From Dictyostelium discoideum (Eukaryota), in contig CM000155.2 in the NCBI GenBank assembly GCA_000004695.1, positions 1,888,001 through 1,952,000 of the forward strand: a stretch of 64,000 nt of DNA. Direction: 5' to 3'. Shown here piece by piece: positions 11,844-34,757 of this stretch (positions are counted from its first letter, which is position 1; each line of letters begins with the position of its first letter). Both the position numbers and the translations under genes were made by a program. The notes under the pieces are model-generated. The model ran no database searches. It worked only from the letters and a program-made list of their open reading frames with translations, and was not told the DNA's origin.

Positions 11844-12181
11844 TTAATTATTAAATTCAACAGCAACATAATCAAAAGTTAAATCATAAACTGCATTATT
11901 ACCCCATGTAATAAAAGTTAAATCAAAACCTTTTGTAGTAATATTTTCAGATTTACCTTCCCATCTCATTTGACCATTATCAGTATGTGCATCAACTTTT
12001 TTACAACCAATTGATACGATTGGAACAGAAAGGAATTCCACTGGGAATTTAACGTGACGAACAATCGTACGTGAACCAGTACCACTGTTAAGAGATCTAT
12101 CACCAATTGAAACTTCACCAACTTGGACTGATGGATTTGAATAACTTTTAACTGGTAATGCATATAATTCCCAACTATATG

Positions 12182-12222
<41 letters not shown>

Positions 12223-12755: not shown

Positions 12756-12865
12756 TTTGTTTTGTTTTGTTTTTTTTTAAAAAGAATTATATAAATAAAT
12801 TAAATACTAATAAAAGATGATTGTTTTGTTTATTGTTTCAATTGACAAAATAATTTTATTAAGTC

Positions 12866-12923
<58 letters not shown>

Positions 12924-13579: not shown

Positions 13580-13820
13580 ATGAATATTGATTGGGATTCA
13601 ATTGAAAATTTAAAGAGAGCAGAATTACAAAAACTATGCAAAGATTTGAAATTAAATATAAAAGGTACATCAAAGAATACTGAATTAGTCACAGCATTAT
13701 TAGAATATAAAAATACATTAAACACCACCACTAAAGATGATGAACCACAACAACAACCACAACAACAGATTGAAAGTATAATAGATCATAATGATGATAA
13801 AAATGAAAATGAAAACACTG

Positions 13821-13884
<64 letters not shown>

Positions 13885-14678
13885 TGATGAACGAATGAAT
13901 ATAGATAATAAAGAAAATGAAGAACATGACGACAATAAAAATCAAACTGAAAAAGAAATCGAAACTGAAAAAGAAACTAAAAAAGAAAATGAAAATGAAA
14001 ATGATAAAGAAAATGAAAAAGAAAATGAAAAAGAAAATGAAAAAGAAAATGAAAAAGAAAATGAAAAAGAAAAGAAATTACTTGTACAAAATGAAAATGA
14101 AAATAAAAATAAAAATAATAATAAAATAGAAGAAGAAGAAGAAGAAAAAAATAAATTTATTGAACAACTTAAAATAAATGATGAAAAAAAAGAAATTGAA
14201 ATGGATAATGAAAATGAAAAAAATTCCCACACGTGTGTATTTTTTTAATATAAATTATTATTATGAATATATATATTTATATTTAAATAGCTAACACTTT
14301 TTTTTATTTTATAATAATTATAAATTTGGAAAAAAAAAAAATTATAATAATAGTGGACTTAAATTTAGAAATTATATACCAAAAGATCAAACATTTTTAA
14401 AATATAGAATTGAAAAAGCAGTAGTACCACCTATTGCTCAAGAATTAATGTCAAGATTAAAAGTTTTAGAAGAGAATCAAGATATTCAAATTTCTTTTGT
14501 ACCAAAAAAAGTAAATTGGGATTTAAAGAGAGATTGTTCAAAGAAATTATTAAAATTAGAAAAACAAACTGAAAAGGCAATTTATCAATTAATTAAACAA
14601 AAGTTAGGAAAAGAAGAAATTAATGAATCAAATATTTATTTATTAAATAAAAATATGGGAAAATTTAATTATCAATAA
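13580..14678 (+). CDS. SAP-domain / CCDC12 (Cwf18-type splicing factor) protein; exons 13580..14232 and 14354..14678
   Basis: N-terminal IENLKRAELQKLCKDLKLNIKGTSKNTELVTALLEY is a SAP motif. It is followed by an acidic, KE-repeat region (ENEKENEK...). The second ORF (LKFRNYIPKDQ...VNWDLKRDCSKKLLKLEKQTEKAIYQLIKQKLG) aligns with human CCDC12 (LRLRNYVPEDEDL...PDWDLKRDVAKKLEKLKKRTQRAIAELIRERL). Donor ac|GTGTGT at 14233 and acceptor aataatag| at 14353 join the two in frame, with the LKFRNY motif beginning right at the acceptor. Confidence 0.6.
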
Positions 14679-14912
14679 AATTTTTTTTTTTTTTTTTTTT
14701 TAAATTTATTTTTGGGAATTGATGAAATTCTTAAAATAAAACTTTTTTTGAATTTAATTTAAATTTATTTTATTTTATTAATTTTTAATTTTTTTTTTTT
14801 ATTTTTTTAATAATTTTTTATTTTATTAATTTTCTATTCACACCCTTTTTTTCATTTTTTTATTTTTTTTTTTTATTATTTTTATTATTTCTAAAATTTG
14901 TATTTTTATAAA

Positions 14913-15686
14913 ATGTCAACACCAACAAAATCATCAGGAGGTGGTAGAACTTATTGGTCTGATAATGAAGAAAATTATTTAAGAGAACAATATTTTCAAA
15001 TGAAAAAGAATGGAGAGAGAATTAATCATATAAAACTTTGTGACTTAATAAACAAAAAGTTTCATTCTGGTTCATCAATTCGTACTGCACAAGCAATAAA
15101 AAATAAATCACATGTTTTAGGTATTACAACACCAACATCAACACCAAATTCAACACCAACATCAACACCAAATTCAACACCAACAAAAAAAGAATATGAA
15201 AAAGGTATAGAAGTTAAAAAACCAGTTATTCAAAATATTAAAAATGTTGGTGATATTAATAATCAAGAAGATGAAGATGATGATGAAGATGAAGATGATG
15301 ATGATAATGATACCCAAACTGATGAAGAAGAAAGTGATAATGGAGAAGAGGAGGAATATTATGATGACCAAGAAGATTATGAATTTGAAATTAATGAAGA
15401 TGAGTTCAATCAAGTTAAAAATGAAAAAGAAAATGAAAAGGAGAAATCAGCTAAAAAAGTTTCACAAACAACCTCTGTTTCAATCTCAAATATGGATAAT
15501 AGAAATAGTGTACCTTTTCAAATTGAACTTCAAATCCCTTCAAAAACAAAAACAACATCAACAAAAACAAAAACAACAAAAACAACAACAAAAAGAGATG
15601 TAATATTATCAGAAATGGATTATCTAAAAAAAAGATTAGATTATTTGGATGAAAAATTGAAAAATTTAGATTTAAACTGTAAATAA
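14913..15686 (+). CDS. Myb/SANT-like domain protein with acidic region and C-terminal YLKKRLDYLDEKLKNL motif
   Basis: RTYWSDNEENYLREQYFQMKKNGERINHIKLCDLINKKFHSGSSIRTAQAIKNKSHVLGI is a single Myb-like repeat. The ORF-track start at 14898 is TTG; the first ATG is 14913 (MSTPTK...). It is a paralogue of the gene at 17792. Confidence 0.6.
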   Translation: MSTPTKSSGGGRTYWSDNEENYLREQYFQMKKNGERINHIKLCDLINKKFHSGSSIRTAQAIKNKSHVLGITTPTSTPNSTPTSTPNSTPTKKEYEKGIEVKKPVIQNIKNVGDINNQEDEDDDEDEDDDDNDTQTDEEESDNGEEEEYYDDQEDYEFEINEDEFNQVKNEKENEKEKSAKKVSQTTSVSISNMDNRNSVPFQIELQIPSKTKTTSTKTKTTKTTTKRDVILSEMDYLKKRLDYLDEKLKNLDLNCK

Positions 15687-15937
15687 AATAAAATGAAATA
15701 AAAAAAAAGATATTATTTGCAATAAAATTAAATAATTTTTAAAATATAAATAAAATTAAAAAAAAAAAAAAAAAAAAAATTTACCCTTTGTTTTTATTAT
15801 TTTCCTGAATCGGAAACAAAAAACCAAAACAGGAATTTATCGATCAATCATTAAAAAGAGTAAAAATGAAAACTAAAAAAAAAAAATTAAATCAATTTGA
15901 ATTCCTTTTTTGGTTTATAATAATCTCATCCAAACCT

Positions 15938-15973
<36 letters not shown>

Positions 15974-17791
15974 GTAAAAAAGAAAAATTTTCTTTTTTAT
16001 TTTTCATTCATTAAAATTAATTCTAACAAAACAAATAATAAAAAAAATAAAAAAATAAACAATTACACAATGTATTAAAAAAAAAAAAAAACACAATTAC
16101 ATTATATTTATGAGTTAAAATAGTATTGTGAAAAAAAAAAAAAGTAAATTTTTTATAAAACATTATTTAAAATAATACTAATTGTTTTTTTTTATTTTTT
16201 TATTATTATTTATAAGAACAACTGAATTCCAAAAGTTCAAAGAAGATACACAATAATATTTGCTAATTATTCTTTATTTCAATTTAATATTATTTTTTTT
16301 TTTCAATTTCTTTTTATGTTTAATTAGAGGGTTTAAAGAGTATTACAAAGATTTTTACTCCAATGTATCATAATTGGAGGGGCATCATAGGTATAATAAT
16401 TTTTTTTCAACTTTTTAAATGATAAACAAAATAAAATCGATTAATTTCAATTTTATTTTAATCTTTTTGAATTGATTTAAAATTTTGTATTCTGGAGTTG
16501 TCCTTCTTTTACATTTTCATTGTACGCAGGGTGGTTTGAAGCCTTATCTTTCACATATGCAATGAAGCATCATTAGTAGGTGATCGTGCTGTAATCAGTT
16601 TAAGTGGGCAAAGTTGGGGAGTCAGACATGCCTCTCATCCTAATCGAGGAAACGACCGACCACTCCTCATTTACATTCTTTTTGAAAAAAAAAAGAAACT
16701 TCCAACATGTAGTATTAATTTATTATGTCAAGAGTTCGAAGGTAAATGTGCTAATTAGAATATTGTAATTCCTGGGTATTATCTCTTTTCAAAATCATAA
16801 AAAAAAAAAAAAAAAAAAAAAAAAATTAAAAAAAAAGAAAATTAATCAACCACCATTCTCTCTGCCTCTTATATGTAAAAAAAAAAAAACAACAACTCAA
16901 TCAATATGAAAATCAATCATTTTAAATATTGTCGTAATGAATGTTGTTTTTTAAATACTATAACACTTTTGTTTTTCACAAATTAGAATAATGTCACCTT
17001 CAAAAAAAAAGTAAGTATTTTTAATTTTTTTTTTTTTTTTTTAATAACTACGATTTACTGAAACTATAATAATTTTTAAAAATTCAAAATACCTTTTGTC
17101 ACATTAATGTTATTATATAGGCGAAGTGTGTTCTCAAACTCAAAAATAAAAAAATAAAAATCATTTCAAAGGTGTTTTTAACTATATACAGTCAATTAGT
17201 TCCTAAAACTTAGTTTCCAATAGTTTGGAATTTAAATTAAAAAATCTTTCAAAAAAAATTCTAATCAATTTTTAAATAAAAAACACTTTTAAACTGATTC
17301 ATCAAAATAATTTTTTTTCTTTTCTCTTTCTCTTTTCTCTTCTCTTTTAAAAGTATTAAAAATAATAACAGTATTAATAATAATAATAATGGTATTGCAA
17401 TAAAAAAAAAAAAAAGTTGAATATAAAAAAAGAGATATAAAATTTTTTTTTTTTTTTTTAATTTTTGGTGAAAAGCAGATAAAATCAGATTTATTTTATT
17501 TTTCTTTTCGGGCCAATATTGTAATTTGATTATTTTTTTAAAAAATTTCTTAAATTTTTACAAAATTTTTTAGAAAATTTCTTAAATTTTTAGAAATTTT
17601 TTTAAATAATATCTTGTTTGTAATTCTTTTTATAAATAATACTTTTTTTTTTTATTTTTTTTTATAAATTAAAAGAGCTCACAAATTTATTTTTCTCATT
17701 TATAATTTAACTTGGTATATAAATATTTTTTTCACATATTTTGTTTCTATTAATAATCTTATTTTTTATTTTTTATTTTTTTTTTTTGAAA

Positions 17792-18403
17792 ATGGCTAAA
17801 CCATGGTTAGATGAAGAAACCGAATATCTTAAGGAACTTTATTATCATCATTACCAAAAGAATAAAAAAGAAAAGATCAATTGTAACAAAATTACACAAT
17901 TAGTTAATGAAAGATTTGCAAATGATCGTTCACCCCAAGCAATTAAAGACAAGGCACATAGGTTAAAAATTTCCAAGAAATATGCAACTAAAACTGATAA
18001 TGATTATGATGATTATGATGATGATGATGATGATGATGATAATGATAATGATTATGATGGTAGAGATAATAATGAAGATTCTCAAAAAATAGGAAAAATT
18101 AACTTTGATGATCAAAATGTTAATGTTAAAGAAGAGATCTACCAACAACCTGTTAAAACAACAATCTCAGTATCAATCTTGGATGATAATAATAATAAAA
18201 ATAATAAAAATGAAAATTCAGTTCAAACAATAACAACAACAACAACAAAAAAACCAGAAATAGATACACCACCAATAACAAATGCAACTACAACAACAAA
18301 AAATTTAAAAAAATTAAAAAAAGATTCAATTGAAGTTGAAATTAAATATTTGAAAAAAAGGTTAGATTATTTAACAGAAAAATTGAATAATTTAGAAATT
18401 TAA
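17792..18403 (+). CDS. Myb/SANT-like domain protein, paralogue of 14913..15686
   Basis: KPWLDEETEYLKELYYHHYQKNKKEKINCNKITQLVNERFANDRSPQAIKDKAHRLKI, an acidic D-rich region and C-terminal YLKKRLDYLTEKLNNLEI share the architecture of the upstream gene. The first ATG is at 17792; the ORF-track start at 17741 is a TTG inside a T-run. Confidence 0.6.
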   Translation: MAKPWLDEETEYLKELYYHHYQKNKKEKINCNKITQLVNERFANDRSPQAIKDKAHRLKISKKYATKTDNDYDDYDDDDDDDDNDNDYDGRDNNEDSQKIGKINFDDQNVNVKEEIYQQPVKTTISVSILDDNNNKNNKNENSVQTITTTTTKKPEIDTPPITNATTTTKNLKKLKKDSIEVEIKYLKKRLDYLTEKLNNLEI

Positions 18404-18692
18404 AAATTAATCATATTAAAATATCTAAAAATAAAAATATTTGGTTTAGATATTTTTTATTTTTTATTTTTTATTTTAACATTTTTTATTTTTTAATTTT
18501 TTTTTTTTAATTTTTTTTTTATTTTTTTTTTTATTAAAACACACACCTCATAATGATTCATAGACAAAAAAAAAAAAAAACAAAAAAACAAAATTAAAAA
18601 AAAAAAAATTGTGTTTTAAAGTTCATTGTTTACATTCTTTAAAAAGAATAAAAACATACACACAATATCTCTAATAGAGATAACAACAAAAT

Positions 18693-20964
18693 ATGTTAAC
18701 TATTAAAAGATTACTTTTAAATCAAAACCTATTTAAAAGTAGTTGTAATTCCACAGGTATCATTTCAATTAATTACAATAGTAATAATAAAATTTGTTTT
18801 TTCAGTTCTTCTTCAACATTAATAAATAAAACTAATGAAATTTTAGATATTGAAGATAATAATAATAATAATAATGAAATATCATCATCACCATTATTTT
18901 TAAAAGAAACAATTAAAGAATTTAAATTAAAAAAAGAATTTATTGAAAAGTATTCAAAAAAGAAAGCACCATTTGGATTTGGAGTATTGGGTGAGATTGT
19001 ATATAGAAGAAGTTATTCGAGAGTTAAAGAGGATAATACAAATGAACAATGGTTTGAAACCGTTGAGAGAGTTGTAAATGGTACATATAATATTCAAAGG
19101 AAATGGATAGAAAGACATGGTTTAGAATGGAATCAAAATAAAGCTCAAAAATCTGCACAAGAAATGTATAATCGTATATTTGAAATGAAGTTTTTACCAC
19201 CTGGTAGAGGTTTATATTCTTGTGGTTCTTCAACTACTGAATCAAAAGGTTTATTCGCTGCTTTAAATAATTGTGCTTTCGTTAGTACATTAGATATTAA
19301 AAAGAATCCTTCAAAACCATTTATATTCTTAATGGATGCTTCAATGTTAGGTGTTGGTGTTGGGTTCGATACAAAAGGTGAAAATTCAATTATAATTAAA
19401 GGTCAATTACCACCACCACCACCACAACAACAACCACAACAACAACAACAACAACATGGTCAAAATAATAATATATTTATTGTACCAGATAGTAGAGAAG
19501 GTTGGGTAGAATCAGTTCAATTATTATTAGATTCATACTTTTTAAAAAGGAATAATCCAATATTTGATTATAGTTCAATTAGAAAAAAAGGTGAACCAAT
19601 TAAAGGATTTGGAGGAGTTTGTTGTGGTTATGAACCTTTAAAAGAATTACATGATGAAATTAGAGCTTTATTGAATAAATGTATTGGTAAACCAATTAGT
19701 TCAACAAATATTGTGGATTTAATGAATTTAATTGGAAAATGTGTTGTATCTGGTAATGTTCGACAAGCTGCAGAGATTGCATTTGGTGATCCAAATTCTC
19801 AAGAGTATATAGATTTAAAAAACTATCAAATCAATCCACAACGTGCTTCATTTGGTTGGTGTAGTAATAATAGTGTATTTGCAGAACTAGGTATGGATTA
19901 TTCAAAAGTTTGTCAAAGTATACTTCATAATGGTGAGCCTGGTTTAGCATGGTTGGATAATATGAAAGCGTATAGCAGAATGGTGCCAACCGAATTGGAT
20001 TATAAAGATCGTAGAGCAATGGGTGGCAACCCATGTTTAGAGCAAACTTTAGAATCTTATGAACTTTGCTGTCTAGTTGAAACGTTTCCCAACAATCACG
20101 AGAGTTTAGAAGACTATTTAAAAACTTTGAAATACGCATTCCTATATGCCAAAACCGTTACACTCGGTTCCACCCAATGGCCCGATACCAATAAGGTACT
20201 GCTCCGTAATAGAAGAATCGGATGCTCCATGAGTGGTATAGCACAGTTCATTCATTTCAATGGGTTGCATCAACTTAAGGATTGGTGTGTCAATGGTTTC
20301 AAGCTTTTGAATGAATTGGATGAGAAGTATTCCGAGTGGTTGGCAATACCGAAATCAATAAAGAGAACATCGATTAAACCAAGTGGCACTGTGTCGTTGT
20401 TGGCTGGTGCCACACCTGGCATGCATTATCCGATATCTGAATATTACATTAGACGTATAAGAATTCAAAAAGAGAGTAACCTAATTCCACCATTGGTAGA
20501 AGCCGGCTACCATGTTGAGCCAGCCTTTGAGAATAGTACCAATGTTGTAGTTGAAATACCCATTCATTCAGGTAAAGGTATTAGATCTGCAAATTCAATA
20601 ACAATGTGGGAACAATTATCATTAGCTTCTTTTCTTCAAAAATATTGGGCTGATAATCAAGTGAGTTGTACAGTCTCTTTTGATCCAATTAAAGAGGGTC
20701 CACAATTAAAACATGCCTTAGATTACTTTCAATATCAATTAAAAGGTGTATCATTTTTACCAAATTCTTCAACAACTACATCTGTTTATAAACAAATGCC
20801 TTATGAAGAAATTGATGAAACTCGTTACAACCAAATCATTGCTAACCTAAAACCTGTTGATTTTCAAAAGTTAAATAATTCCCCTTTAGAGCCTACTCCT
20901 GATAAATTTTGTGATTCTTCAAGTTGTACAATTGTTTCTGATAATTCTGAAACACTTAATAATT

Positions 20965-20969
<5 letters not shown>
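18693..20969 (+). CDS. class II (adenosylcobalamin-dependent, monomeric RTPR-type) ribonucleotide reductase
   Basis: 758-aa single exon with the class II active-site signature GGNPCLEQTLESYELCCLVE (NPCGEQ-type cysteine loop) and overall RTPR-like layout. Includes an N-terminal S/N-rich extension and an internal poly-Q/P insert (PPPPQQQPQQQQQQH). Confidence 0.75.
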
Positions 20970-21011
<42 letters not shown>

Positions 21012-21473
21012 TAAAAATAAAAAACTCGATAATTTCCAAAAATTATTATAATATTAGATGGAATAATAGTGATTCTTATTTTGGTAATTTACATCATCAA
21101 TTTTTTTAATTTTAATGAATTTATTTTTTTATCTTAAATAAATTTTAACTTTTATTATTAAATAATTAAGTTTTTATAAAAATTTTTATTTACATAAATC
21201 TTTAAATTATTAAATTTGATTTATATCTTATCAAATCTATTATTTATTTATTTAACTATTATTTTCATTTCTAAAAAAAAATGGATGGCGGTCCGATCAC
21301 AGTTGTAATGAAACTCTTTGGCTTTCATTACAAATTATAATATAATAATATTCAAATAAATAATTAATAATAAATAATAAATAATATTATATCTCTATAT
21401 AATATTATATGTAATAAAGTTTACTGTGTGTTCAAGGTCACAAATATAAAAAAATATTGTAAGTATTTCACAG

Positions 21474-21910
21474 AAGTTTTTTTTTTGAATTGGATAACGC
21501 AATTATTATTTGCTTCTCCTTGAGATGCTAGATCTCATTTTATTTTATTTTTTTTTTGTTTACAGGGTCTCTAAAAGAGGGGTTGGTTTACCTTTTTTTT
21601 TTTTTTTTTTTTTTTTGTTTCGAATTTTGAATTGTATTATTACTTTTGATTAAAACATCTTTTTTGTCCAAACTTTTTTCTAAATCTTTTTTTATTTTAT
21701 CGTCTGGTTCGTGATTGATGTTTATGACGTATTTGAATTGTTTTTTTTTTAATTGAGTTTTATCCACAATTTCGCTTATTTTTTGTAGGCATTTGTGTTG
21801 CTTAATATTTATGGTGTTGTTTGTGATTTTCATCTTATTTTCTTTCTATTTTTTTTATTTTTCTTTAAAAAGTTAAAAATCTGGAAATTTTCTGATTAAC
21901 TTGGGTTCCC

Positions 21911-21970
<60 letters not shown>

Positions 21971-22330
21971 AAAAATGAAATAATCAAAAAAAGAGATTAT
22001 TTGTTTTTTTCATTTCACAGAAGTTTTTTTTTTTTTTGAATTGGATAACGCAATTATTATTTGCTTCTCCTTGAGATGCTAGATCTCATTTTATTTTTTT
22101 TTTTTTTTTTACAGGGTCTTTTTGATTAAAACATCTTTTTTGTCCAAACTTTTTTCTAAATCTTTTTTTATTTTATCGTCTGGGTCGTGATTGATGTTTA
22201 TGACGTATTTGAATTGTTTTTTTTTTAATTGAGTTTTATCCACAATTTCGCTTATTTTTTGTAGGCATTTGTGTTGCTTAATATTTGTGGGGGTGGTTGG
22301 GATTTTCCATTTATTTTCCTTCCATCCTTT
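21474..22330 (-). repeat. two tandem partial TRE5-A-like units (B/C-module-like), each holding an ORF1 N-terminal fragment
   Basis: Copy A (21474..21915) and copy B (22017..22330) both show cacagaagtt...gaattggataacgcaattattatttgcttctccttgagatgctagatctcatttta...acagggtct followed by the revcomp of the ORF1 start. Copy A carries a T24 run and 22 extra bases; copy B joins directly. Confidence 0.7.
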
Positions 22331-22351
22331 TTATTTTTTGGAATAACCTGG

Positions 22352-22407
<56 letters not shown>

Positions 22408-22703
22408 TTATAGAAAGTACTGAGTGAATTATTGTATTTTTTGAGATGTTTAGGAAGTTCTATTGCGGGTGTTGATGATGATTTGTGACACCCCTTGTCC
22501 TGTTTTATCAATTGGTGCGTGGTGTGTTATTTTGTTTTTATATTGTTGATTTATTGAGTAAATTTTATTTGTTTTTATATTTGTTTCAGTTAGAAGTGCT
22601 GCGTCCAGCTTGTTGTTGTCTAAAACGGTGTTTATTATGCTGGCAGATTGGATGGTGTTGGATCCTTGGACGTTCCAAACACCTATTCTTATTGTGTTTT
22701 TCT

Positions 22704-24038
22704 TTATAGTTTTATTTGGGGTAGATTTTTATCTACCTTTTGAAGTTTCTGGTTTATTTTGTCTTCTAACTGATCTTTACTTTGTTCGTTGTGTTGTTGG
22801 TCTTGTGTGTTTGTGGGGTTTTTTGATTTATTGATTTGTTTTAGAATTTCCTTGTTGAAGTTGTCTATATCTTCATCCATTTTTGTTTTTATGCTTTTTT
22901 GTCCATATTCACCCAATTTTGGTTTGACTGGTGTTTTGTTGGTCTTGTTTGTTTTGTCTTGTTGTTTCTTTTTTGGTGTGTTTAACAATTTACTTGGTGA
23001 ATCGATAATTTTCGATGGTGTACCATAGGTTGGGCTGAAACTCATGATATGTTTTATTGGAGAGGAGAAGAACCATTGATTTGAAGGGATTGAAAGTGGG
23101 AATTCTATTTTTCTTATTGCATCAGTGTTTGGGCTGGTGAAGTCGAAGATATCATTTGCCTCTCTAAGTTTTTCTTCCGTTGTTAGTCCCTTTGTTTCGC
23201 CGTGTTGTTTTATTGGTGTATTGTATGGAGATGGTGGTTCGATAGGTTTTTCTGATTTTGTTTTAATTTCTTGATTGTTTATCGATTGTGTATTGATCTC
23301 ATTCTCTATTCTTGTTAGTTCATCTACGTTTTCTAGTGATGCTTCTATTACCTTTTGAGCTGTATCATCTAGGGCCATAAATGTTTTATCATTAGATGAG
23401 GATGTGATTGGTGGGATAATGATTGTTCTTTTTCCTTGTTTTGGTATTTGTTCTGATGTAGATTGTGGTTGTTGTTCATCTGATTGTTTTTTATTTTTGT
23501 TTTCTTCTTGATTTTCTGGTAATGAGGTTTGATCTCTCCATCCTTTGTTGGAGTGTCCAATTAATGTTAGATTGTCTAGTTCAATGATAGTGTCAAATTC
23601 TTCTACGACTCTTTTCACTGTTTTGATAATTAGAGTTTCGCCTTTAATTTCTGATTTAATTAGTTTACATCCTTCATTTTCTATTACCCATTCTATTTCT
23701 GTGAGTGATTTATACCAATCAAAATCTGTATACATATTTTTTGGTCTTATAGTGGTTATAAATTGTCCTTTTAATTCTGCATCAAACATATTTACAAAAT
23801 AGATTACTGTACTAATACTGTCTGTGAGAATTTTGAATGTATTATTACTTTTGATTAAAACATCTTTTTTGTCCAAACTTTTTTCTAAATCTTTTTTTAT
23901 TTTATCGTCTGGTTCGTGATTGATGTTTATGACGTATTTGAATTGTTTTTTTTTTAATTGAGTTTTATCCACAATTTCGCTTATTTTTTGTAGGCATTTG
24001 TGTTGCTTAATATTTGTGGTGTTGTTTGTGATTTTCAT
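22704..24038 (-). CDS. TRE5-A-like retrotransposon ORF1 protein (444 aa)
   Basis: Starts with ATG; K/E-rich and about 51 kDa, as reported for TRE5-A ORF1p. Its N-terminal 65-73 codons recur at 21617..21833 and 22110..22300 inside repeated modules. No RT/endonuclease ORF follows. Confidence 0.65.
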   Translation of the reverse strand: MKITNNTTNIKQHKCLQKISEIVDKTQLKKKQFKYVININHEPDDKIKKDLEKSLDKKDVLIKSNNTFKILTDSISTVIYFVNMFDAELKGQFITTIRPKNMYTDFDWYKSLTEIEWVIENEGCKLIKSEIKGETLIIKTVKRVVEEFDTIIELDNLTLIGHSNKGWRDQTSLPENQEENKNKKQSDEQQPQSTSEQIPKQGKRTIIIPPITSSSNDKTFMALDDTAQKVIEASLENVDELTRIENEINTQSINNQEIKTKSEKPIEPPSPYNTPIKQHGETKGLTTEEKLREANDIFDFTSPNTDAIRKIEFPLSIPSNQWFFSSPIKHIMSFSPTYGTPSKIIDSPSKLLNTPKKKQQDKTNKTNKTPVKPKLGEYGQKSIKTKMDEDIDNFNKEILKQINKSKNPTNTQDQQHNEQSKDQLEDKINQKLQKVDKNLPQIKL

Positions 24039-24113
24039 TTTATTTTCTTTCTATCTTTTTTATTTTTCTTTAAAAAGTTAAAAATCTGGAAATTTTCTAA
24101 TTAACTTGGTTCC

Positions 24114-24167
<54 letters not shown>

Positions 24168-24170
<3 letters not shown>

Positions 24171-24838
24171 TCTTTTTTATATGAAAAATGAAATAATCAA
24201 AAAAAGAGATTGTTGTTGTTGTTTGTTTTTTTCGATCTGATTATTTTTTGCTTTTTTTTTGAAAATTTTGCTACGCAAAATTCTCAAAACGAAACAAATA
24301 ATAAATTACAATAAAGTAAAAAGATGGCTTTTTAAAATAGTTTATTTATTTATTTATTTGTTTTTTAAGTCTTTTTTATATGAAAAATGAAATAATCAAA
24401 AAAAGAGATTGTTGTTGTTGTTTGTTTTTTTCGATCTGATTATTTTTTGCTTTTTTTTTGAAAATTTTGCTACGCAAAATTCTCAAAACGAAACAAATAA
24501 TAAATTACAATAAAGTAAAAAGATGGCTTTTTAAAATAGTTTATTTATTTATTTATTTGTTTTTTAAGTCTTTTTTATATGAAAAATGAAATAATCAAAA
24601 AAAGAGATTGTTGTTGTTGTTTGTTTTTTTCGATCTGATTATTTTTTGCTTTTTTTTTGAAAATTTTGCTACGCAAAATTCTCAAAACGAAACAAATAAT
24701 AAATTACAATAAAGTAAAAAGATGGCTTTTTAAAATAGTTTATTTATTTATTTATTTGTTTTTTAAGTCTTTTTTATATGAAAAATGAAATAATCAAAAA
24801 AAGAGATTGTTGTTGTTGTTTGTTTTTTTCGATCTGAT
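24168..24838. repeat. tandem array, about 3.4 copies of a 199-bp unit (A-module-like), truncated at the tRNA-proximal end
   Basis: Unit begins aagtcttttttatatgaaaaatgaaataatcaaaaaaagagattgttgttg... and recurs at 24168, 24367, 24566 and 24765. The last copy is cut after ...cgatctgat at 24838. Confidence 0.9.
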
Positions 24839-24885
24839 AAAATTATATATATATATTAAAAGATTTATTATAAAAAATATAAAAA

Positions 24886-24956
24886 GCGTATGTGGTCTAG
24901 TGGTATGATGCATCCCTGCCACGGATGCGAACTGGGTTCGATTCCCAGCATACGCA
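24886..24956 (+). tRNA. tRNA-Gly (anticodon GCC)
   Basis: GCGTATG acceptor stem paired with CATACGC, anticodon stem GCATCC/GGATGC, loop CTGCCAC (U33-GCC-A37), T-arm CTGGG-TTCGATT-CCCAG, discriminator A. 71 nt, no intron. Confidence 0.9.
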
Positions 24957-24977
24957 CAAATTTTACCTAATGATAAA

Positions 24978-24999
24978 TAAGGGCAATGGTTCGATTCCT
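24978..24999 (+). promoter_or_regulatory. external B box (exB) about 22 bp downstream of tRNA-Gly
   Basis: AAGGGCAATGGTTCGATTCCTT is a second B-box consensus (GGTTCGAnTCC) outside the tRNA. The identical 22-mer follows the other tRNA-Gly copy at 39195..39216. Confidence 0.7.
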
Positions 25000-25078
25000 T
25001 TAAATGGAAATCTTGATTATCGTGATCTATTTTTACCAAAAAAAAAAAAAAAAAAAAATTAAAAATATGAATATTATT

Positions 25079-26029
25079 TTATTTTATTAATTTAATATAT
25101 TTAAAATAATTTGATTGTTTAATTGAATCTAAAAATGTAATATGTGAAACTTTTACAAAAATTGAATGTAAATTTGGAAAAGCAGTTGGATCATCATTTA
25201 ATATAATTGGACAAGCATCACCAATAATATGTAATTCTTTAAGTGATGGAAAAATAATTGGTGAAATTAAATGATAACATTTAAAACCTAATTTTAATAT
25301 TTCAATTGTATTTGGTATATTAGATTCTTGAAATTCTACAGGGTATAATGAAACTTGAAATTCAATTAAATTGCATAAACTTTTTAAGCTATTTCCAAGA
25401 TTAGTTAAAATTTTTATATCAATTGAAAGATTATCCAATTTTATTGAACGAATTGATTTAGGAAATTCAATATCTTTACGACTAACAAGTTTTGATACTG
25501 TTAATTTAGTACAATTTGGTGGAATTGATTGATGTGATAAAAATTCAACAACTTTATAATCATTGATTTTATTAAAAAAACTATCAGATAGAGTGGAATT
25601 ATAACTAGACAATGGTGAATATTTTAAAATCATTGTTTCATTTGGTAATTGAATATCCTTATCATAGATGCCACATGAAATTTCTAAAAATTTTAAAGTT
25701 TTTGGTAAAATGCCTTCGGCAATTGGTTGATTGAATGAAGAACCCAGATAAATTACCTCTAGACACTCATTTGGTAACCATTCAATTGATTGATTAAAAA
25801 AAGAGAATTCTAATCGTTTTAATTGTTGTGGTAAACAATCTTTTTTCAATGGTTTACCACCATTATTAAAATCTATTAACTTTAAATACTTTATAGTATT
25901 TGGTAATGTTGATGGTCTTAAATTTTGATTAAAATTTTTTAATTCTAAATTTGTTAAACCATTTGGTAAATCATTTGGATAAATAATTTTATTAAATAAT
26001 CCAATTTTTAATGAAATTAAATTATTAAA

Positions 26030-26089
<60 letters not shown>

Positions 26090-27454
26090 TATTTTATTTT
26101 TAACTTTTGTAATTATTGAAACTTTTTTATTATTTAATGATTTATTATTTAATTGACTAATTTTTAAATATTTTAAATCTATTGGTAAATTTGTTAAATC
26201 GGTTGAATATGAATTAAAATTTAAACTTTTCAAAGAGATTGGGAATAGTTTTGGTTGAATATTTTGTTTCCAATCACTCTGAATTTTAAAATATTTTAAA
26301 TTACTTGGTAATGAATATTCATTAATTTTACTTTTAAATGAATAACCAAACATTAAAAATTGTAAGGATTGTGGTAAAAAACCAGGATAAATAATTTGAT
26401 TAAATCTTGGAAGAATTAATTTTTTTAAGTTTTGTAAATTTGATAAAATGTTGCCTCTAAATGGTCGATTATAAGCTGCTAATCTTAAATCAGTTAATGA
26501 ATTTGGTAATATACCTTCTGATGAAAATTCAATATCAAAACTATGACCAATATATAAATATTGCAATGTATTTGGTAATGAGTTTACTTTTAATTCTCTA
26601 GAAAATTGTGAACCAATTGTTAACTCTACTAAATTTGGTGGTAATAGATTTGGTTTAATCTCTTGAGTGAAACAATTACCTAAATCTAATGAGGTTAAAT
26701 TCTTACCATTACCATTCTGAAAATAGTCATTAAATGACCATCCACGATAAAAATCACCAATTCTTAAATATTTTACTGATTCTGGTATTAAAGGTAATGG
26801 AAATTGATTATATGGAGCAACATTTCTAAAATCAACAAATACAGATTCTAATGTTTTTAAAGGTAATATTAAATTTAAGAAATTTTGATCCATAAATGTA
26901 ATTAACTCTTCTTCTTCTACTTCTTCTTTTTCTTGAAAATTTATATTTTCATTATTATTACCAATAATACTATTTCTACTACTAATACTACCACTACTAC
27001 TACTACTACTTAAACTACTACTACTATTATTATTAAAGCTTCGGTTATTATTAATATTAACATTATTTGAAACCTTTAAACTTTGTCTAAAAGTTTTATT
27101 TTTTTTAGGTTTATTTATTAAAGTTGACATTGGATATTTCTCTTTCTTTTTTATGGTTTTATAATATTTTGAATCATGATTTGTATCATCACTGTCACTC
27201 AAGGATACATCACTATTATTATCACTTAACTCGTCAATTACAAATTCATTGCCATCTGTACAAAAATTTGGAAATGGTGAAAGATGAATTGAATTTAAAT
27301 ATTCTTTAGTTTCTCTTTCTTTAATTGATTGACAATTATTAAAAATTCTTGGCCAATAATTATATGAATATAATTTTAAATGTTGTAAAATATTATCTTT
27401 TATAAAATTATTTCTCCATATTTTAAAAAATAATTTATCATTATTAATTTCTTC

Positions 27455-27457
<3 letters not shown>
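25079..27457 (-). CDS. FNIP-repeat-containing protein
   Basis: 792-aa ORF starting with ATG. About 20 tandem roughly 22-residue repeats of the form LP.sL..L.fG..FNq.I (e.g. LPNSLTDLRLAAYNRPF, LPQSLQFLMFGYSFKSKI, LPSNLKYFKIQSDWKQNI). Typical Dictyostelium FNIP N-terminus (KLFFKIWRNNFIKDNILQHL). Internal N23 tract. Confidence 0.7.

Positions 27458-27460
<3 letters not shown>

Positions 27461-27545
<85 letters not shown>
27461..27545. repeat. (ATT)n microsatellite immediately upstream of the FNIP gene start codon
   Basis: Direct read of the sequence. Confidence 0.9.
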
Positions 27546-27547
<2 letters not shown>

Positions 27548-27720
27548 AAAAAAAAAAAAAAAAAAAAATTTTTAAAAAAAAAAAAAAAAAAAAAAAAGAT
27601 TTGTTGATTGAAAAAAAAAAAAAAGTAAAAAAATAAAAAAAAAAATTATAAATATCTTTTTTTTTTTTTTGTTGGGATATTTTTTTAAGGATTTTTATTT
27701 TTAATTTTAATTGAAATTAA

Positions 27721-28753
27721 TTATTCTAATAATTTTTCTTTAATTTGTTGATCATCATTACTAGTAATAAAAGTTAATTTTGTTGAATCATTAAATTTTA
27801 ATATTGGTTCAAAATCATTTGGAGATATTTGTTTATGATCTAATAAGATTTCAATGATTTCTTTAGTTGAAGTTGTCCAAAAACTAAATGTATTTGTACG
27901 AAAGAATATATTTAATTTTGAATTATTTGGATATTTTCTACGAATTGAAGAGTCAATAAGTTTATTATATTTTTTAAAATCAAAAACTGTAATATTTTTA
28001 ATTTCTTTTAAACTTTCATTTGAGAGATGATCAGTCATTCTTTTAAGATCTAAATCTGATAAATAATTGATCCAACCACCAACATAAATTAATGGAAATA
28101 TAAGGTATGGAAAAGAACTCATTGCCAATGTACCAACTTCAGCTGATAGAGTACCTTGAAATTGAATTCTATACATACTACCAGAACATTGGATTTCATT
28201 ATAATGATCAGTTCTATAAATTATCCAATTGATTTTTGTAATTATATAACAAATTCCACCAATTAGGAAATAAAAAGTTAACCTTTTTTCATGAGTTTTC
28301 TTACCATCCAAAAATATTAATGACCCTGCTAAAATATCTTGAATTCTTTTTCTTTTTTGAAATTGTAAATAATGAGCAACTTGAAAGAAACCTTGAACTA
28401 ATAAAAAGAAAATTATTGAAATTGCAATTAAAAATGAACTATATCTATCATCCTTTAATCCTATTGTACCCAATGTAAATGATAATGAATAATTTGAACC
28501 AGTATCATAAATTTGGTTTATACATGTTGTAACATCATAGTTTTCAATAAAGCAATTATCTAAACTAATTTCTGAATTAATATTATTTGGTTTTGAACAA
28601 CCAGCTACTTGCATTGTATTAAAATTATTAAAAAATCCATATTCACCAAATAAAATTAATGAAAAACTTATACCAAGTTGAATAAAGATTCTAATTGGTT
28701 TTGCTTGAATTGCATTTAAAAATTTTTTAAAATCAAATATAAATTGATTTTCC

Positions 28754-28755
<2 letters not shown>
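27721..28755 (-). CDS. hypothetical multi-pass membrane protein
   Basis: 344-aa ATG-initiated ORF with at least five hydrophobic segments (IRIFIQLGISFSLILFG; FLIAISIIFFLLVQGFFQVAHYL; FYFLIGGICYIITKINWIIY; LAMSSFPYLIFPLIYVGGWINYL). No recognisable domain. Confidence 0.5.
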
Positions 28756-28784
<29 letters not shown>

Positions 28785-29274
28785 TTTATTTATTATTTTA
28801 TTTATTTATAAACAATTAAAAAAATTAAAATAATTATTATTATTTATTATATTATTATATATAAAACATATAAAATAAAAAATAAAAAAAAATTTGTTTA
28901 AATAAAAAAAAAAAAACATTCAACGTGGTATTGCTAAAAATATTTTGGATTGATCCTTCCAGGGTTACATGTTTTTTTTTTTTTTTCAAAAAAATGAGTA
29001 CTTTTTTAAAGTATGAAATAAAATCAAATTAAAAAAAAAAAAAAAAAAAATGGAGATATTTTCACTAATTTGGGGGTTACAACTGAAAAATAAAAATAAA
29101 AAAAATAAAAATAAAAATAAAAATAAACTTTTTGTAGAGTCACATAGAAAATAAAAAAAAAAAAAAAAGGCGACAAACCCGCAGTGCCGCACAAAATTAC
29201 TTTTCACCACTTTAATGCTTAAATTTTTACAGACAACCACCCTTAACTTTTTGTTGTGCAAGGTAATTTTATTT

Positions 29275-29309
<35 letters not shown>

Positions 29310-29313
<4 letters not shown>

Positions 29314-29759
29314 CTTCTTTCTCCAACATTAAAAGACATACGAGTGCCTGGTCCTGATGGATTTAAACCTTCAGTATATTTTCTATTATTATTATTAGAA
29401 TTATTTATTGAATTTGGTTTACCAATTTTCTTTTGATAATTGTGATCAAATTGGTTTATTGAATTTGTTGGAATTGGAGAAGTTTTTAATTCCTCTGTAA
29501 ATTGTTCTTGTTTTTTTAATCTTGAAACTCTAATATTTTCATCATTTTTCTCAATGGTATCATTACTAAATGGTTGTTTATCTTTATTAGCCAACTTTTG
29601 ATTTTCTTTATATCTACCATATAATATATTTGCAATGATAACAACGAAAATTGCAACCCAAATTTCAATATGATATTTGTTTATTGCTTCTGAATAATTT
29701 ACATTTATAATATATTTTGTTACAAGATCCTCTTCATATTCTGATTCTTCTAATCCCAT
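29310..29759 (-). CDS. hypothetical single-pass membrane protein (149 aa)
   Basis: ATG start and acidic N-terminus, one TM helix (HIEIWVAIFVVIIANILYG), N/S-rich tail. Confidence 0.45.
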
Positions 29760-30020
29760 TTCTTTTATTTATTTATTTATTTTTTTTTTTTTTTAATATT
29801 TATATATATATATATATATAAAATTATATTTGTATTGTTTTATTTGTTGCTATTGTGGTGTGTTTGTGTGATGAAAATTACTAAATTAAAAAAAAAAAAA
29901 ACATTAAATAAATTAAAAATATGAATTTTTATTTTTCATTTTTTTATTTTTTTTTATTTTTATTTTTAATTTTTTATTTTTTTTTTCATTTTTGTTTTTT
30001 CACCCACATTTCAAAGAGAT

Positions 30021-31172
30021 ATGAGTTATACAAATACAAAAGAAGAAACCCAAATAATAAATATAGAAAACAATGATATAAAGAAAAGAAAATTTATAGA
30101 AAACAATAATACCAACAATAATACCAACAGCAATACCAACAGTAATAACAAAAATAATAATAATAATAATAATAATAAATCAAATAATAAAAAACAAAAT
30201 AATAATAATAAAAAACCAAGATTAAAATTTACATATGATTATAATTATAAGATAATTAGTCCATTTCAAAAGTTTTTAGATTATGGTATTTGTCCAACTC
30301 TGAATGAACTATATAGTGAATTCTATCATATCCTTAACGAGAATAAATGTCAAAAGTTAAAAATGGAATTAGATGAATTAAAAAAGATGAATAAAGGTGA
30401 TAAACCAATACCAATCGATTTCGATCCAAGTAAAATATGTCATCAACATTCTAAAGAAGATATTGAACAAATCATTTTCGATCCAAATGATAGACACCTC
30501 ATTGAATTGGCAGTCAGAAAATTTTGTGGATTCCTTCAAAAAGAGTCAAATATGGTATTAATGGAAATGATCATTCTATCAATTGGTCTACTAAAATCAA
30601 TTGAATTCTTACATTTCACTTTAGAAATTGAAAGAGATGGTGGTATTTTCACTACTGTCATTCCAAAATCATCACCTAATACAACCACTACTACCACTTC
30701 TACTACTACTACTACTACTACAATAATTAATGATGATAATACCTTAATAACAACAAAAGATTCAAATGAACAAACATCGTCATCATCATCATCATCAACA
30801 GCAATAACTACCAATACTAATTGTAGCAATTCAAAATCTTCATCACAACCAATAACAAGAAGAAGAACACCAGGTGGTGTTTTTTATAAATTAATCAATT
30901 TACATATACCAACAGAATTTAAATCAAATCTTTTTTCGATCTCTTCCTTATTTAAGTATAAGAATGAAAGAAAGAAAAAAGGTTTTGGTACTTTATTAGA
31001 TTTAAAAGATAAACTTTTAGATTTTACCTCAAATAATAGTAATGGCAATAATGATAATAATGAAAATAGTCAAGAACAAATCAACAGCAAGAAATTTAAT
31101 AAATTGTTAAATGAAGTTGATGAAGAATTTGATAAACTTTGTGTTTCTTCAAAAAATGAAATTATGACTTGA
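30021..31172 (+). CDS. hypothetical protein, N/T/S-rich low-complexity regions
   Basis: 383-aa ATG-initiated ORF. Central ordered segment (FQKFLDYGICPTLNELYSEFYHILNENKCQKLKMELDELKKMNKGDKPIPIDFDPSKICHQH...) flanked by poly-N and poly-T. No domain recognised. Confidence 0.45.
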   Translation: MSYTNTKEETQIINIENNDIKKRKFIENNNTNNNTNSNTNSNNKNNNNNNNNKSNNKKQNNNNKKPRLKFTYDYNYKIISPFQKFLDYGICPTLNELYSEFYHILNENKCQKLKMELDELKKMNKGDKPIPIDFDPSKICHQHSKEDIEQIIFDPNDRHLIELAVRKFCGFLQKESNMVLMEMIILSIGLLKSIEFLHFTLEIERDGGIFTTVIPKSSPNTTTTTTSTTTTTTTIINDDNTLITTKDSNEQTSSSSSSSTAITTNTNCSNSKSSSQPITRRRTPGGVFYKLINLHIPTEFKSNLFSISSLFKYKNERKKKGFGTLLDLKDKLLDFTSNNSNGNNDNNENSQEQINSKKFNKLLNEVDEEFDKLCVSSKNEIMT

Positions 31173-31628
31173 TATCATTAATTGGAAATAAAAATAAAAA
31201 TAAAAATAAAAATAAAAATAAAAATAAAATATATGTACTTTGTTATTTGCAACCAACCTAAACAAATTTAATCTTTTTTTTTTTTTTTTAGCTCATTGCT
31301 TCGTTTGGACCATAGAATATAATTTAAATTTGTTGTTTAAACCAAAACAAAAACAAAATAATAATTAAAAAAAAAGAAAAAAAAAATTGGTTTTAATGTT
31401 TATTTCTTTTTTGTTAAACATTAGTTCAAAAACCACTTGAGAAAATAAAATTAAATTTTAAATGTCATTGATTTTTTTTTAGATTTGAATAATCTAGATT
31501 TAATTTAAGGTTTATTAAAAAAAAAAAAAAAATATTATTGCTTAATTTCATTATTGTAAATAAAAATCAATAAACAAATCTAAAAATAAAATAAAAAAAT
31601 TGATGTTGATTATTTTTCAATTATTTTT

Positions 31629-31668
<40 letters not shown>

Positions 31669-31876
31669 AAAATAAAAATCCAATTATTTATTTGAAAATT
31701 AAACCCATCAAATGGTTTGGATTTTTTTTTTTTTTTTTTTTATTTTTTTTTTATTTTTTATTTTTTTATTTTTTTTTTTTCCATGATGAAATTTTTTTTT
31801 TTATTTTTAAATTTTTTTTTTTTTTTTTCAGACTTTTCAATATTAAAAAAAATATTTATTTATATCTTATTTAAAA

Positions 31877-32391
31877 ATGACAGACTATAACTTTGGTTTA
31901 GATGCAGATTTAGCAAATAAAAGAGTTGCATTATATGATAAAGATTTAGAAAACGATACCAGATCTTGGATTGAATCACTCATTGGTGAAAAAATTAATG
32001 GAGATTTAATGGCTGCATTAAAATCTGGTGTTATCCTTTGCAAGTAAGTAAATTAATTTAATAAAATTATGAAAATAAAAATAAAAATAAACTAATCAAA
32101 ACTTTTTTTTTTCATTTTTTTTTTTTTATTTTTTTTAAATATAGATTAGGTAACAAGATTGCCCCAGGATCATGTAAATCATCACCATCATCAGCACCAT
32201 TCGTTCAAATGGAAAACGTTAATAACTTTTTAAATCTCTGTAAAAAACAAGGTGTTGCAACTACTGATCTTTTCATGACTGTTGATTTATATGAAGGAAA
32301 GAACCCAAATCAAGTTATTCAAGGTCTTCAAGCACTCAAAAGAATAACTTCAGGTGGTGGTAAACCAACTACAACTGCTAAATCAGCGTAA
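31877..32391 (+). CDS. calponin-homology (CH) domain protein, calponin/transgelin-like; exons 31877..32043 and 32145..32391
   Basis: WIESLIGEKINGDLMAALKSGVILCK|LGNKIAP...NFLNLCKKQGVATTDLFMTVDLYEGKNPNQVIQGLQALK aligns with the calponin CH domain (..VLCELIN..; ..[27 protein letters not shown]). Donor aa|GTAAGT at 32044, acceptor atatag| at 32144, phase 2. Coordinates near 32341 may be off by 1, because the printed sequence and the ORF track disagree by one base there. Confidence 0.7.
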
Positions 32392-32875
32392 ATTATCAAC
32401 ATTTAAAAAAAAAAAAAACCATCATTTATTTATTACTATCCATCATTATTTTTTTTAATTTATTCAACAACATCAAACTACATATCCATATAATATTATA
32501 TAATTATTTCAAATTTATCCATCATTCCGCTCTTTCAAATTCCCACTACACCTATACCTATACCTATATATCTCTATATATATTTAACAAAAACCACACA
32601 CTCCCCCATCAAAGTATTTATTTTCCAAAAATAAGAAATAAAGAACTAACCTAATAATCATAATTTTTTATAGTCCAACACCATCTACTATTTTTGAAAC
32701 AACCTCAAAGAATACTACAAGTTTTTGTTCACAATGCGGTACCAAAGCCGTCAGTGGGGCTCGTTTCTGTGGTAGTTGCGGTACTGCCATTTAAATAATA
32801 ATTTATAATAAAAAAAAAAAAATAAAAAAAAAGAAATAAAAACAAAAAATAGTAATATTTAAATATGTACAATCG

Positions 32876-32911
<36 letters not shown>

Positions 32912-32979
32912 AAACTTGTCTTTAATAATTAGATTATTTTTATGGTTTTTATTTTATTTTATTTGGTTTTATTTTATTT

Positions 32980-34703: not shown

Positions 34704-34757
34704 AGTTTAATTTATAATTTTATCTTTTTTTTTGAAAATAAAAATAATGTTCATCAG

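Follow-up and report, generated by a model that had tools for sequence, protein, structure and literature searches.

What is the origin of the repetitive DNA immediately upstream of a tRNA-Gly(GCC) gene (24886-24957, plus strand) in a 64-kb stretch of the Dictyostelium discoideum genome (contig CM000155.2; referred to here as the window), and did all of it arrive by insertion at that tRNA gene? An initial annotation of this locus had proposed a non-autonomous TRE5-A-like retroelement lying 47 bp upstream of the tRNA, with its A-module end towards the tRNA gene and with a predicted need for the product of its second open reading frame (ORF2) in trans. This core proposal stands, as the structural hallmarks described for the family (PMC3159450; PMC5391098) were found at the locus. 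Module structure and alignment identify 22024-24838 (minus strand) as TRE5-A.2, a known non-autonomous deletion derivative of TRE5-A (formerly DRE), a retrotransposon of the class without long terminal repeats (non-LTR). The whole stretch is best explained, with a probability of about 0.88, as a copy of this known element at the tRNA-Gly gene that is joined to a 3' part from a second genomic site. The sole point that goes beyond the routine is the combination of unequal target-site duplications with a discrepancy of 360-380 kb between the window and other D. discoideum genomes.

Identity and structure of the TRE5-A.2 copy

Reports of TRE5-A.2 at tRNA genes date back to the early 1990s, and the system serves as a standard model of position-specific retrotransposition; an element of this type upstream of a tRNA gene is thus a long-established system and, as a finding, already known. 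The autonomous TRE5-A.1 is organized as AB-ORF1/ORF2-BC, with modules of 200 bp (A), 290 bp (B), and 134-137 bp (C), while TRE5-A.2 is organized as AB-ORF1-BC, lacks a large part of ORF2, and is shortened by 72 bp at BC so that the last 87 bp of C are kept (PMC3159450). For comparison, nine ORF1 loci (L001-L009) were fetched from assembly GCA_054883475.1, and the complete 5.65-kb TRE5-A.1 in L003 (1798-7445) was used as the alignment reference.

The modular order AB-ORF1-BC is present in the window copy, both in the alignment to this reference and in the repeat map. The similarity to TRE5-A modules that had been anticipated amounts to 97.9% to the full-length copy in L003: at this identity, 24437->22467 aligns to reference nt 10-1966, a segment that takes in the A units, the poly(A) run with the 290-nt B-module, ORF1, and the next 237 nt. 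The alignment then skips to reference nt 5100, nt 1967-5099 being deleted in the ORF2 remnant of the window, and 22467->22120 corresponds to nt 5100-5475 (the ORF2 end and the 3' B-module). A second gap follows at nt 5476-5558 (83 nt, variable A run included), after which 22110->22024 corresponds to the remaining 88 nt of the 3' end (nt 5559-5646). Because eight other copies in the fetched loci carry both deletions, at about 98% identity, the element represents the amplified TRE5-A.2 family and not a private deletion.

The copy shares with published TRE5-A.2 (formerly DRE subform b) the AB-ORF1-BC order, the loss of ~3.1 kb of ORF2, the 87-bp C end, the 444-aa ORF1, and the placement relative to a tRNA gene (47 bp upstream, 5' end towards it), and it differs in its unequal flanking duplications, 14 private substitutions, and 3.5 A units. 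Compared with the autonomous, 5.65-kb TRE5-A.1, it has the same A, B, and C modules, ORF1, 3' hairpin, and target preference, whereas ORF2 codons ~89-1132 (most of the APE domain, and all of the reverse transcriptase and zinc finger) are absent, as is a B/C-junction segment of about 72-83 bp.

All parts of the element lie on the minus strand. Leftwards from the tRNA, a spacer of 47 nt (24839-24885), of which the element-side 13 nt are the 5' copy of the target-site duplication, leads to the A-module array (24142-24838), which contains the promoter. TRF resolves this array into 3.5 tandem 199-bp units (98% matches, score 1359), and it is 96-97% identical to the A region of the full-length TRE5-A.1; the initial annotation had the array and its distance to the tRNA right, with a slightly lower count of ~3.4 copies. 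The 5' B-module (23828-24167) consists of an A50 run (24118-24167) and 290 nt, matches both B copies of TRE5-A.1, and contains 79 nt of 5' untranslated region and the first 70 ORF1 codons, its 290-bp size agreeing with the published one (PMC3159450). ORF1 (24038->22704) is intact at 444 aa, as first annotated, and its homologues assign it to the TFIIIB-binding targeting protein of TRE5-A.

Downstream of ORF1, alignment to the full-length TRE5-A.1 delimits an ORF2 remnant (22404-22728), in which ORF2 codons 1-88 (22728->~22467), containing the start of the APE endonuclease domain, are fused out of frame to the last 20 codons and the stop (22466->22404). The earlier statement that the element has no reverse transcriptase or endonuclease ORF is accurate for complete ORFs, but these two ends of ORF2 do remain. 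The 3' B-module (22113-22409), delimited by alignment and the repeat map, comprises an A56 run (22354-22409) and ~240 nt, and is followed by a shortened C-module (22024-22112), which the 3' end alignment resolves into 73 nt ending in GCGTTATCCAATTC and an A14 tail, that is, the 87-bp 3' end typical of TRE5-A.2 with its 3' hairpins included. In the repeat map, three ~300-nt copies hold the ORF1 start (21626-21925, 22102-22401, and 23831-24130), and an 81-nt tail is present in two copies that are 99% identical (21477-21557 and 22028-22108).

Stem-loops at the 3' end of the C-module are needed for TRE5-A retrotransposition. The terminal 54 nt, whose sequence is identical in the two elements of the window (see below), fold into two hairpins (-11.3 kcal/mol, z = -3.1). 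Five of the five landmarks taken from PMC3159450 also agree, namely Ile-10 of ORF1 and, on the sense strand of the C-module, C38, A35, C26, and T15 (numbered from the 3' end).

The start of ORF2 is peculiar in its own right. In the -1 frame, it opens 25 nt ahead of the ORF1 stop (L003 3502-3820; window 22704-22728), and the first ATG is at codon 106, though the endonuclease domain begins near codon 18. Since this domain precedes codon 106, ORF2 would not be translatable from its first ATG, and frameshifting, reinitiation, or a non-AUG start would therefore be required.

Could ORF1 instead be a host gene, with unrelated satellite repeats that happen to lie near a tRNA gene? A Pfam search of ORF1 returned no domain (only SEP at E = 0.52), and the multi-copy proteins of D. 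discoideum AX4 to which it is 99% identical are recorded merely as 'hypothetical proteins', both of which would suit a host gene. Against this, the exact ORF1 protein is encoded at at least 11 places in GCA_054883475.1, usually 41-51 bp from a tRNA gene and always surrounded by A/B/C modules, and the copies have oligo(A) tails and target-site duplications. (These matches were obtained with the window's own ORF1; a contig look-up with the ORF1 cluster representative P0001 gave no match.) In the full-length elements, moreover, the same 444-aa ORF1 lies upstream of a 1047-aa ORF with an RVT_1 domain (L002 and L003, two of the nine loci). The ORF2 frame in L003 extends over 1152 codons from stop to stop and matches RVT_1 (E = 2.9e-33) and, weakly, Exo_endo_phos (residues 18-195) and zf-RVT; an order of APE, reverse transcriptase, and zinc finger is known for TRE5-A ORF2 (PMC5391098). 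RVT_1 was detected in the full-length reference only, not in the window element. A host gene is hence next to impossible, and the assignment of ORF1 to a retroelement is upheld.

The multiplied A-module had been taken as a sign of deletion derivatives. The number of 199-bp A units is 3.5 in the window, 8.5 in the syntenic L007 copy (6214-7905), ~8.5 in L001 (6226-7909), 21.5 in L006 (3628-7905), and 1.5-2.5 elsewhere, and every array has the same unit start position and the same partial unit as its last one, before the poly(A) run and the B-module. Comparison of these copies indicates that multiple A units are a normal, variable feature (1.5 to 21.5 units) and not the product of a deletion; no mention of multiple A-modules was found in the literature searched.

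Two target sites and a second element

To define the end of the element, the 3' ends of 20 C-modules were lined up. The end is ...GCGTTATCCAATTC, followed by 8-27 A and then by 12-15 nt that repeat the 5' flank of the element, which compares with duplications of 10-16 bp reported for TRE5-A (PMC9012585). A matching pair of 12-15 bp flanks every related copy examined, including those in L001 (TTTTATTTATTAT), L002 (GATTAATCACCAAT), L005 (TGGTTTCGTACATTC), L006 (GTACGTTATTATCTA), and L009 (ACTATTAGAAATAGG), and the L007 copy that is syntenic with the window (TATATATAATTTT).

The window copy has no such pair. Its 5' flank is the 13-mer TATATATAATTTT (24839-24851, element strand), the duplication of the tRNA-Gly insertion, which occurs once in the window, whereas its A14 tail is followed by the different sequence CTTCTGTGAAAT (22012-22023, minus strand). 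A second copy of CTTCTGTGAAAT lies at 21465-21476 (minus strand), after an A10 tail, in an arrangement identical to that in L008/L010, and beyond it begins a unique flank towards a gene encoding RNR; we therefore refer to CTTCTGTGAAAT as the duplication of the RNR-side site. Neither motif is found elsewhere in the 64 kb. The check for a duplication and a poly(A) end, as first suggested, thus gives a split answer, with oligo(A) ends (A14 and A10) in place but unequal flanking duplications. Because the sister copies have matching pairs, this anomaly concerns the assembled window copy and not its family assignment. A different candidate for the duplication of the TRE5-A.2 copy, GAAAAAAACAAA, which is shared with the start of the second element, was dropped, since in the 20 aligned 3' ends the element terminates with CAATTC plus oligo(A), which leaves CTTCTGTGAAAT as the duplication.

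Between the two copies of CTTCTGTGAAAT, alignment and 3' end comparison reveal a second, older element of the form A'-B-C (21477-22011, minus strand). It consists of a 47-nt A fragment (21965-22011), an A50 run (21915-21964), a B-module (21622-21914), an undeleted B/C junction of the TRE5-A.1 type with an A27 run, a full C-module extending to 21487, and the A10 tail (21477-21486), and it contains an 81-aa ORF1 stub and no other ORF. The two B+C units that the initial annotation had interpreted as deletion derivatives consequently have to be read differently: the nearer one (22024-22409) is the 3' BC end of the TRE5-A.2 copy itself, and the farther one (21477-22011), rather than being a derivative at tRNA-Gly, is this separate A'-B-C element with the duplication of another site. 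Likewise, the conserved tail of ~105 bp noted there is indeed repeated, but it is not one module, being composed of the C-module, oligo(A), and a 12-bp target-site duplication.

An A-B-C structure is the product expected of recombination between the 5' and 3' B-modules of TRE5-A.1, by analogy with a solo LTR, and a second A-B-C unit is present at L006 2735-3423; minimal derivatives of retroelements that resemble short interspersed elements are a further comparison. The A'-B-C element carries an A10 tail and a duplication of its own, and at its 5' end just 8 nt of the canonical start are missing; it could equally have arisen by B-module recombination in a full-length copy or from a retrotransposed minimal transcript.

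When insertion recurs at one target, the newer copy comes to lie on the target side of the older one (PMC9012585), and two or three stacked elements sharing one duplication are present in each of L002, L003, and L007. As stacking at a single tRNA gene is normal for TRE5-A (L002, L003, and L007; PMC9012585) and all pieces in the window share one orientation, the whole of 21474-24838 might be thought to have arisen at tRNA-Gly, either as one element with local deletion derivatives or by successive insertions. Stacked insertions, however, share the tRNA-side duplication, while the window has TATATATAATTTT on the tRNA side and CTTCTGTGAAAT at both 3' ends, and synteny in three other genomes (see below) places the left part elsewhere, beside a tRNA-Ala gene. 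We therefore regard an origin of all pieces at this one site as very improbable. Because the tRNA-side flank bears a different duplication, the target of the stacked insertions was not tRNA-Gly. The duplications indicate that only the 5' part of the window TRE5-A.2 belongs to the tRNA-Gly insertion, and that its 3' end together with the A'-B-C element is the record of two successive insertions at a second site beside the RNR gene.

The join between the two sites

The two sites can be followed in other genomes. Two further loci, L010 and L011, lie on one contig of GCA_054883475.1, with L007/L011 representing the tRNA-Gly side and L008/L010 the RNR side; wild D. discoideum is represented by L012 (GCA_054859385.1), L013, and L014, and the third genome is that of D. 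cf. discoideum, a related cryptic species. Window positions 8655-24140 match L010, and 24142-37509 match L011, 381 kb away. The RNR gene (758 aa) and a 792-aa FNIP-repeat gene are on the same strand in GCA_054883475.1, but in the window they are on opposite strands and 4 kb apart. The RNR protein of the window is exactly EAL61130.1 of AX4, and outside the elements the window differs from GCA_054883475.1 by a handful of bases, mostly beside homopolymers; given these few differences, the latter assembly derives from a near-identical strain.

On the tRNA-Gly side of this assembly (L007/L011), the TRE5-A.2 copy has the same 13-nt duplication TATATATAATTTT on both sides, including after its 3' oligo(A), and is followed by an older TRE5 remnant, again with TATATATAATTTT, and then by a 1152-aa gene. 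In the wild strain (L014), the next gene after the 792-aa orthologue and tRNA-Gly is the 1152-aa orthologue, and all that lies in between is a tiny CAATTC-A12 relic; the RNR gene is located 358 kb from the 792-aa orthologue, on the same strand. On the RNR side, L012 and L013 show RNR followed by a tRNA-Ala(AGC) gene that points away from it, which is the orientation required for TRE5-A copies with their 3' ends towards RNR, as seen in the window. In D. cf. discoideum, the RNR and 792-aa genes are 168 locus tags apart, a separation deduced from the tag numbers. Since the AX2-like, wild, and cryptic-species genomes all keep the two genes far apart, synteny indicates that the adjacency of tRNA-Gly and RNR in the window is derived.

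L014 also supplies the true near-empty orthologous site for tRNA-Gly. The relic there (~10790-10840, 34-45 bp upstream of tRNA-Gly) reads ...TTCAATTC-A12, with GATAAACTA on both sides, and by these features is an extremely 5'-truncated TRE5-A insertion. The second tRNA-Gly gene of the window (39239-39310, minus strand), which had been put forward as the empty counterpart of the occupied site, does have no TRE5-A insertion, but its upstream flank is not homologous, and it is a paralogue rather than an empty allele.

We infer from these comparisons that the window TRE5-A.2 that bridges tRNA-Gly and RNR is a hybrid of two inverted parental copies, which elsewhere lie ~360-380 kb apart. The switch from one to the other falls between 24141, the last position that is L007-like and not L008-like, and 22450, which is L008-like. 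From 24141 to 22450 the window, L007, and L008 are identical (1.7 kb), and single-nucleotide differences cannot place the exchange within this interval. The hybrid would have formed by exchange between two inverted TRE5-A.2 copies within these identical 1.7 kb, either as a real inversion or as a flip or misjoin during assembly. Non-allelic homologous recombination between LINE-1 or Alu elements in mammals is a close parallel, in that unequal flanking duplications signal the exchange and inverted copies yield inversions; it differs in that the exchange in the window could have taken place in the cell or in the assembler.

Several points weigh against this account of the locus. The RNR-side copy in the AX2-like assembly (L008 7846-7896; L010 ~15400-15450) is without any A units, and in L008 its poly(A) run and B-module abut 25 nt of inverted ORF1 (codons 9-17), which in turn border a non-LTR element that is unrelated and has an RVT_1 ORF of 1059 aa; because the copy is thus abnormal at its 5' end, the RNR-side site underwent at least one more rearrangement. 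No tRNA-Ala was found within 10 kb of that copy in the AX2-like assembly. The identity of the element is based on the L003 copy of a public assembly and on features printed in papers, not on an official TRE5-A record, and that GCA_054883475.1 is the Nanopore/Illumina AX2-214 genome of PMC12745789, and the window most likely a part of AX4 chromosome 6, is likewise something we infer. Finally, trans-mobilisation, TFIIIB binding, and transcription, as outlined below, are taken from the literature on the family and not from the window. With regard to the RNR side, a search for the tRNA-Ala and AIG1 genes in the AX-type genome gave no nucleotide match in any of the fetched loci.

Sequence quality bears on how the join arose. 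Fourteen substitutions private to the window (22184 and 22291-22348) lie in the 3' B-module, directly after the A56/T56 run (22354-22409), and at these positions nine other TRE5-A.2 copies, the syntenic L008 copy included, agree among themselves; the substitutions are probably base-calling errors after the long homopolymer. In addition, three poly(A) runs of the elements exceed their long-read counterparts by 13-19 nt, two of them being exactly 50 nt. Such private substitutions and inflated homopolymers, along with an array of 3.5 versus 8.5 A units, are what thin Sanger coverage of a repeat typically produces. A Sanger-era assembler or scaffolding step may thus have joined or flipped the sequence through two inverted TRE5-A.2 copies, all the more so as the identical interval 24141-22450 is longer than a Sanger read and three independent long-read assemblies place RNR far from the 792-aa gene; the real chromosome would in that case resemble the AX2-like and wild-strain assemblies. 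On the other hand, the window agrees nearly perfectly with the long-read assembly outside the repeat, and real large rearrangements with breakpoints at tRNA-associated repeats have occurred in laboratory stocks (PMC2643946). We give an artefact of this kind even odds.

The published reference reportedly also drew on long-range HAPPY maps; these should give a block of 380 kb its correct orientation and would count against an artefact. What speaks for a real inversion of ~380 kb in the sequenced strain, through ectopic homologous recombination between the tRNA-Gly and RNR-side TRE5-A.2 copies, is that these copies are inverted and face each other, and that the recombinant combines one site's duplication at its 5' end with the other's at its 3' end. 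Breakpoints associated with transposable elements and tRNA genes are documented in laboratory strains derived from NC4 (PMC2643946), and other rearrangements are known in the AX4/AX2 lineage (PMC12745789). This evidence nevertheless comes from one of the two junctions, signs of low quality are found inside the same element, and no report of an AX4/AX2 inversion on chromosome 6 turned up in the literature searched; an inversion is accordingly a serious candidate at somewhat less than even chance. Because the local sequence quality is visibly poor, we lean slightly to the assembly explanation.

If the join is real, for which the odds are a little short of even, the strain (probably AX4) has an inversion of ~380 kb on chromosome 6 that is absent from AX2-like and wild strains. 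It would provide a clean instance of laboratory strains set apart by a retrotransposon-mediated rearrangement, and a base-pair-resolved case in which tRNA-targeted retrotransposons remodelled a chromosome over a few decades in laboratory culture. If it is an artefact, it is a reference error worth flagging. A possible inversion of the reference calls for caution when this locus is used as an 'occupied site', in integration statistics, or for synteny.

Targeting of tRNA genes and the surrounding locus

The end of the A array is 47 nt from the first base of tRNA-Gly, and the element has its 5' end towards that of the tRNA. Position 47 upstream of a tRNA gene is the primary site of TRE5-A, whose 5' end is always directed towards that of the tRNA (PMC5391098), and in seven related copies the gap to the tRNA gene is 41-51 nt.

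By analogy with the family, the A-module would drive sense transcription of the element; weak antisense transcription is known from the TRE5-A C-module. The ORF1 protein would then bind TFIIIB, held on the tRNA gene via TFIIIC at the B box, and an ORF2 protein (APE endonuclease, reverse transcriptase, and zinc finger), provided in trans by a full-length TRE5-A.1, the presumed source for the window TRE5-A.2, would nick the DNA ~47 bp upstream of the tRNA. Target-primed reverse transcription would copy the RNA, starting at its C-module hairpin and oligo(A) end, and would yield a 10-16 bp target-site duplication and an element with its 5' end towards the tRNA. Mobilisation of TRE5-A.2 in trans by the TRE5-A.1 ORF2 protein and binding of the ORF1 protein to TFIIIB have both been reported (PMC3159450; PMC5633606). 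Ty3 of yeast and DGLT-A of Dictyostelium have convergently come to use RNA polymerase III (Pol III) factors on tRNA genes as safe landing sites (PMC5006619), although these belong to the LTR/integrase class, insert at a distance of ~15 bp, and have neither a poly(A) tail nor target-primed reverse transcription.

The fetched loci contain further insertions of note. At L009 7567-7612, a TRE5-A.2 copy flanked by a perfect 15-bp duplication, ACTATTAGAAATAGG, is separated by 45 bp from the end of the same 1059-aa non-LTR element that is seen in L008, and ARAGORN found no tRNA at this site. The L009 copy may have used as its target a tRNA-like A/B-box site belonging to another mobile element; a case of this kind at a DDT-B fragment has been described (PMC9012585). 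In L012 (12706-16949), the position 13 bp upstream of tRNA-Ala(AGC) is occupied by an apparently intact, DGLT-A-like LTR retrotransposon with 255-bp LTRs and a single 1176-aa gag-protease-reverse transcriptase-integrase ORF. As full-length DGLT-A is absent from the AX4 genome (PMC5006619), wild strains may have active copies. In the window, TGTAATGAAAC...GCTTTCATTACA (21305-21333) and TGTAATAAAG...TGTGACCTTGAACACACAG (~21415-21460) resemble the LTR termini and interior of tRNA-targeting LTR elements in L012 and L015, and comparison of 21285-21476 with the DGLT-A LTR (MAFFT and sensitive blastn) gave weak, AT-rich matches on two strands. The 21305-21460 stretch may be a solo-LTR relic from a time when this flank faced tRNA-Ala.

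The tRNA-Gly(GCC) gene targeted by the insertion, which is transcribed by Pol III, was recognized by ARAGORN and by Rfam (RF00005, 63.6 bits). Besides the second tRNA-Gly, ARAGORN found a tRNA-Met (60217-60288, minus strand), and tRNA was the sole match in an Rfam scan at a permissive threshold. TRE5-A-like DNA in the window is restricted to 21477-24845. The concept of an external B box ('ex-B') reportedly goes back to Hofmann and colleagues in 1991. The one assigned to the targeted gene from the start holds up: the 11-mer GGTTCGATTCC (24988-24998, plus strand) begins 30 nt past the end of tRNA-Gly and fits the B-box motif GTTCRANNC (PMC5391098). It recurs downstream of all three tRNA genes of the window, at distances of 30, 31, and 32 nt (24988-24998, 39197-39207, and 60174-60184; two tRNA-Gly and one tRNA-Met).

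At the targeted gene, the box is enclosed in a 22-nt block, AAGGGCAATGGTTCGATTCCTT (24979-25000, plus strand), and the identical 22-mer is also present 3' of the second tRNA-Gly, as the reverse complement at 39195-39216. The gene to the right of the second tRNA-Gly (41486-44510) is a 90-94% paralogue of the 1152-aa gene (L011 17895-21014), found in the other genomes past the TREs of the first tRNA-Gly. Together with their neighbours, the two tRNA-Gly genes, ~14 kb apart, look like an old inverted segmental duplication.

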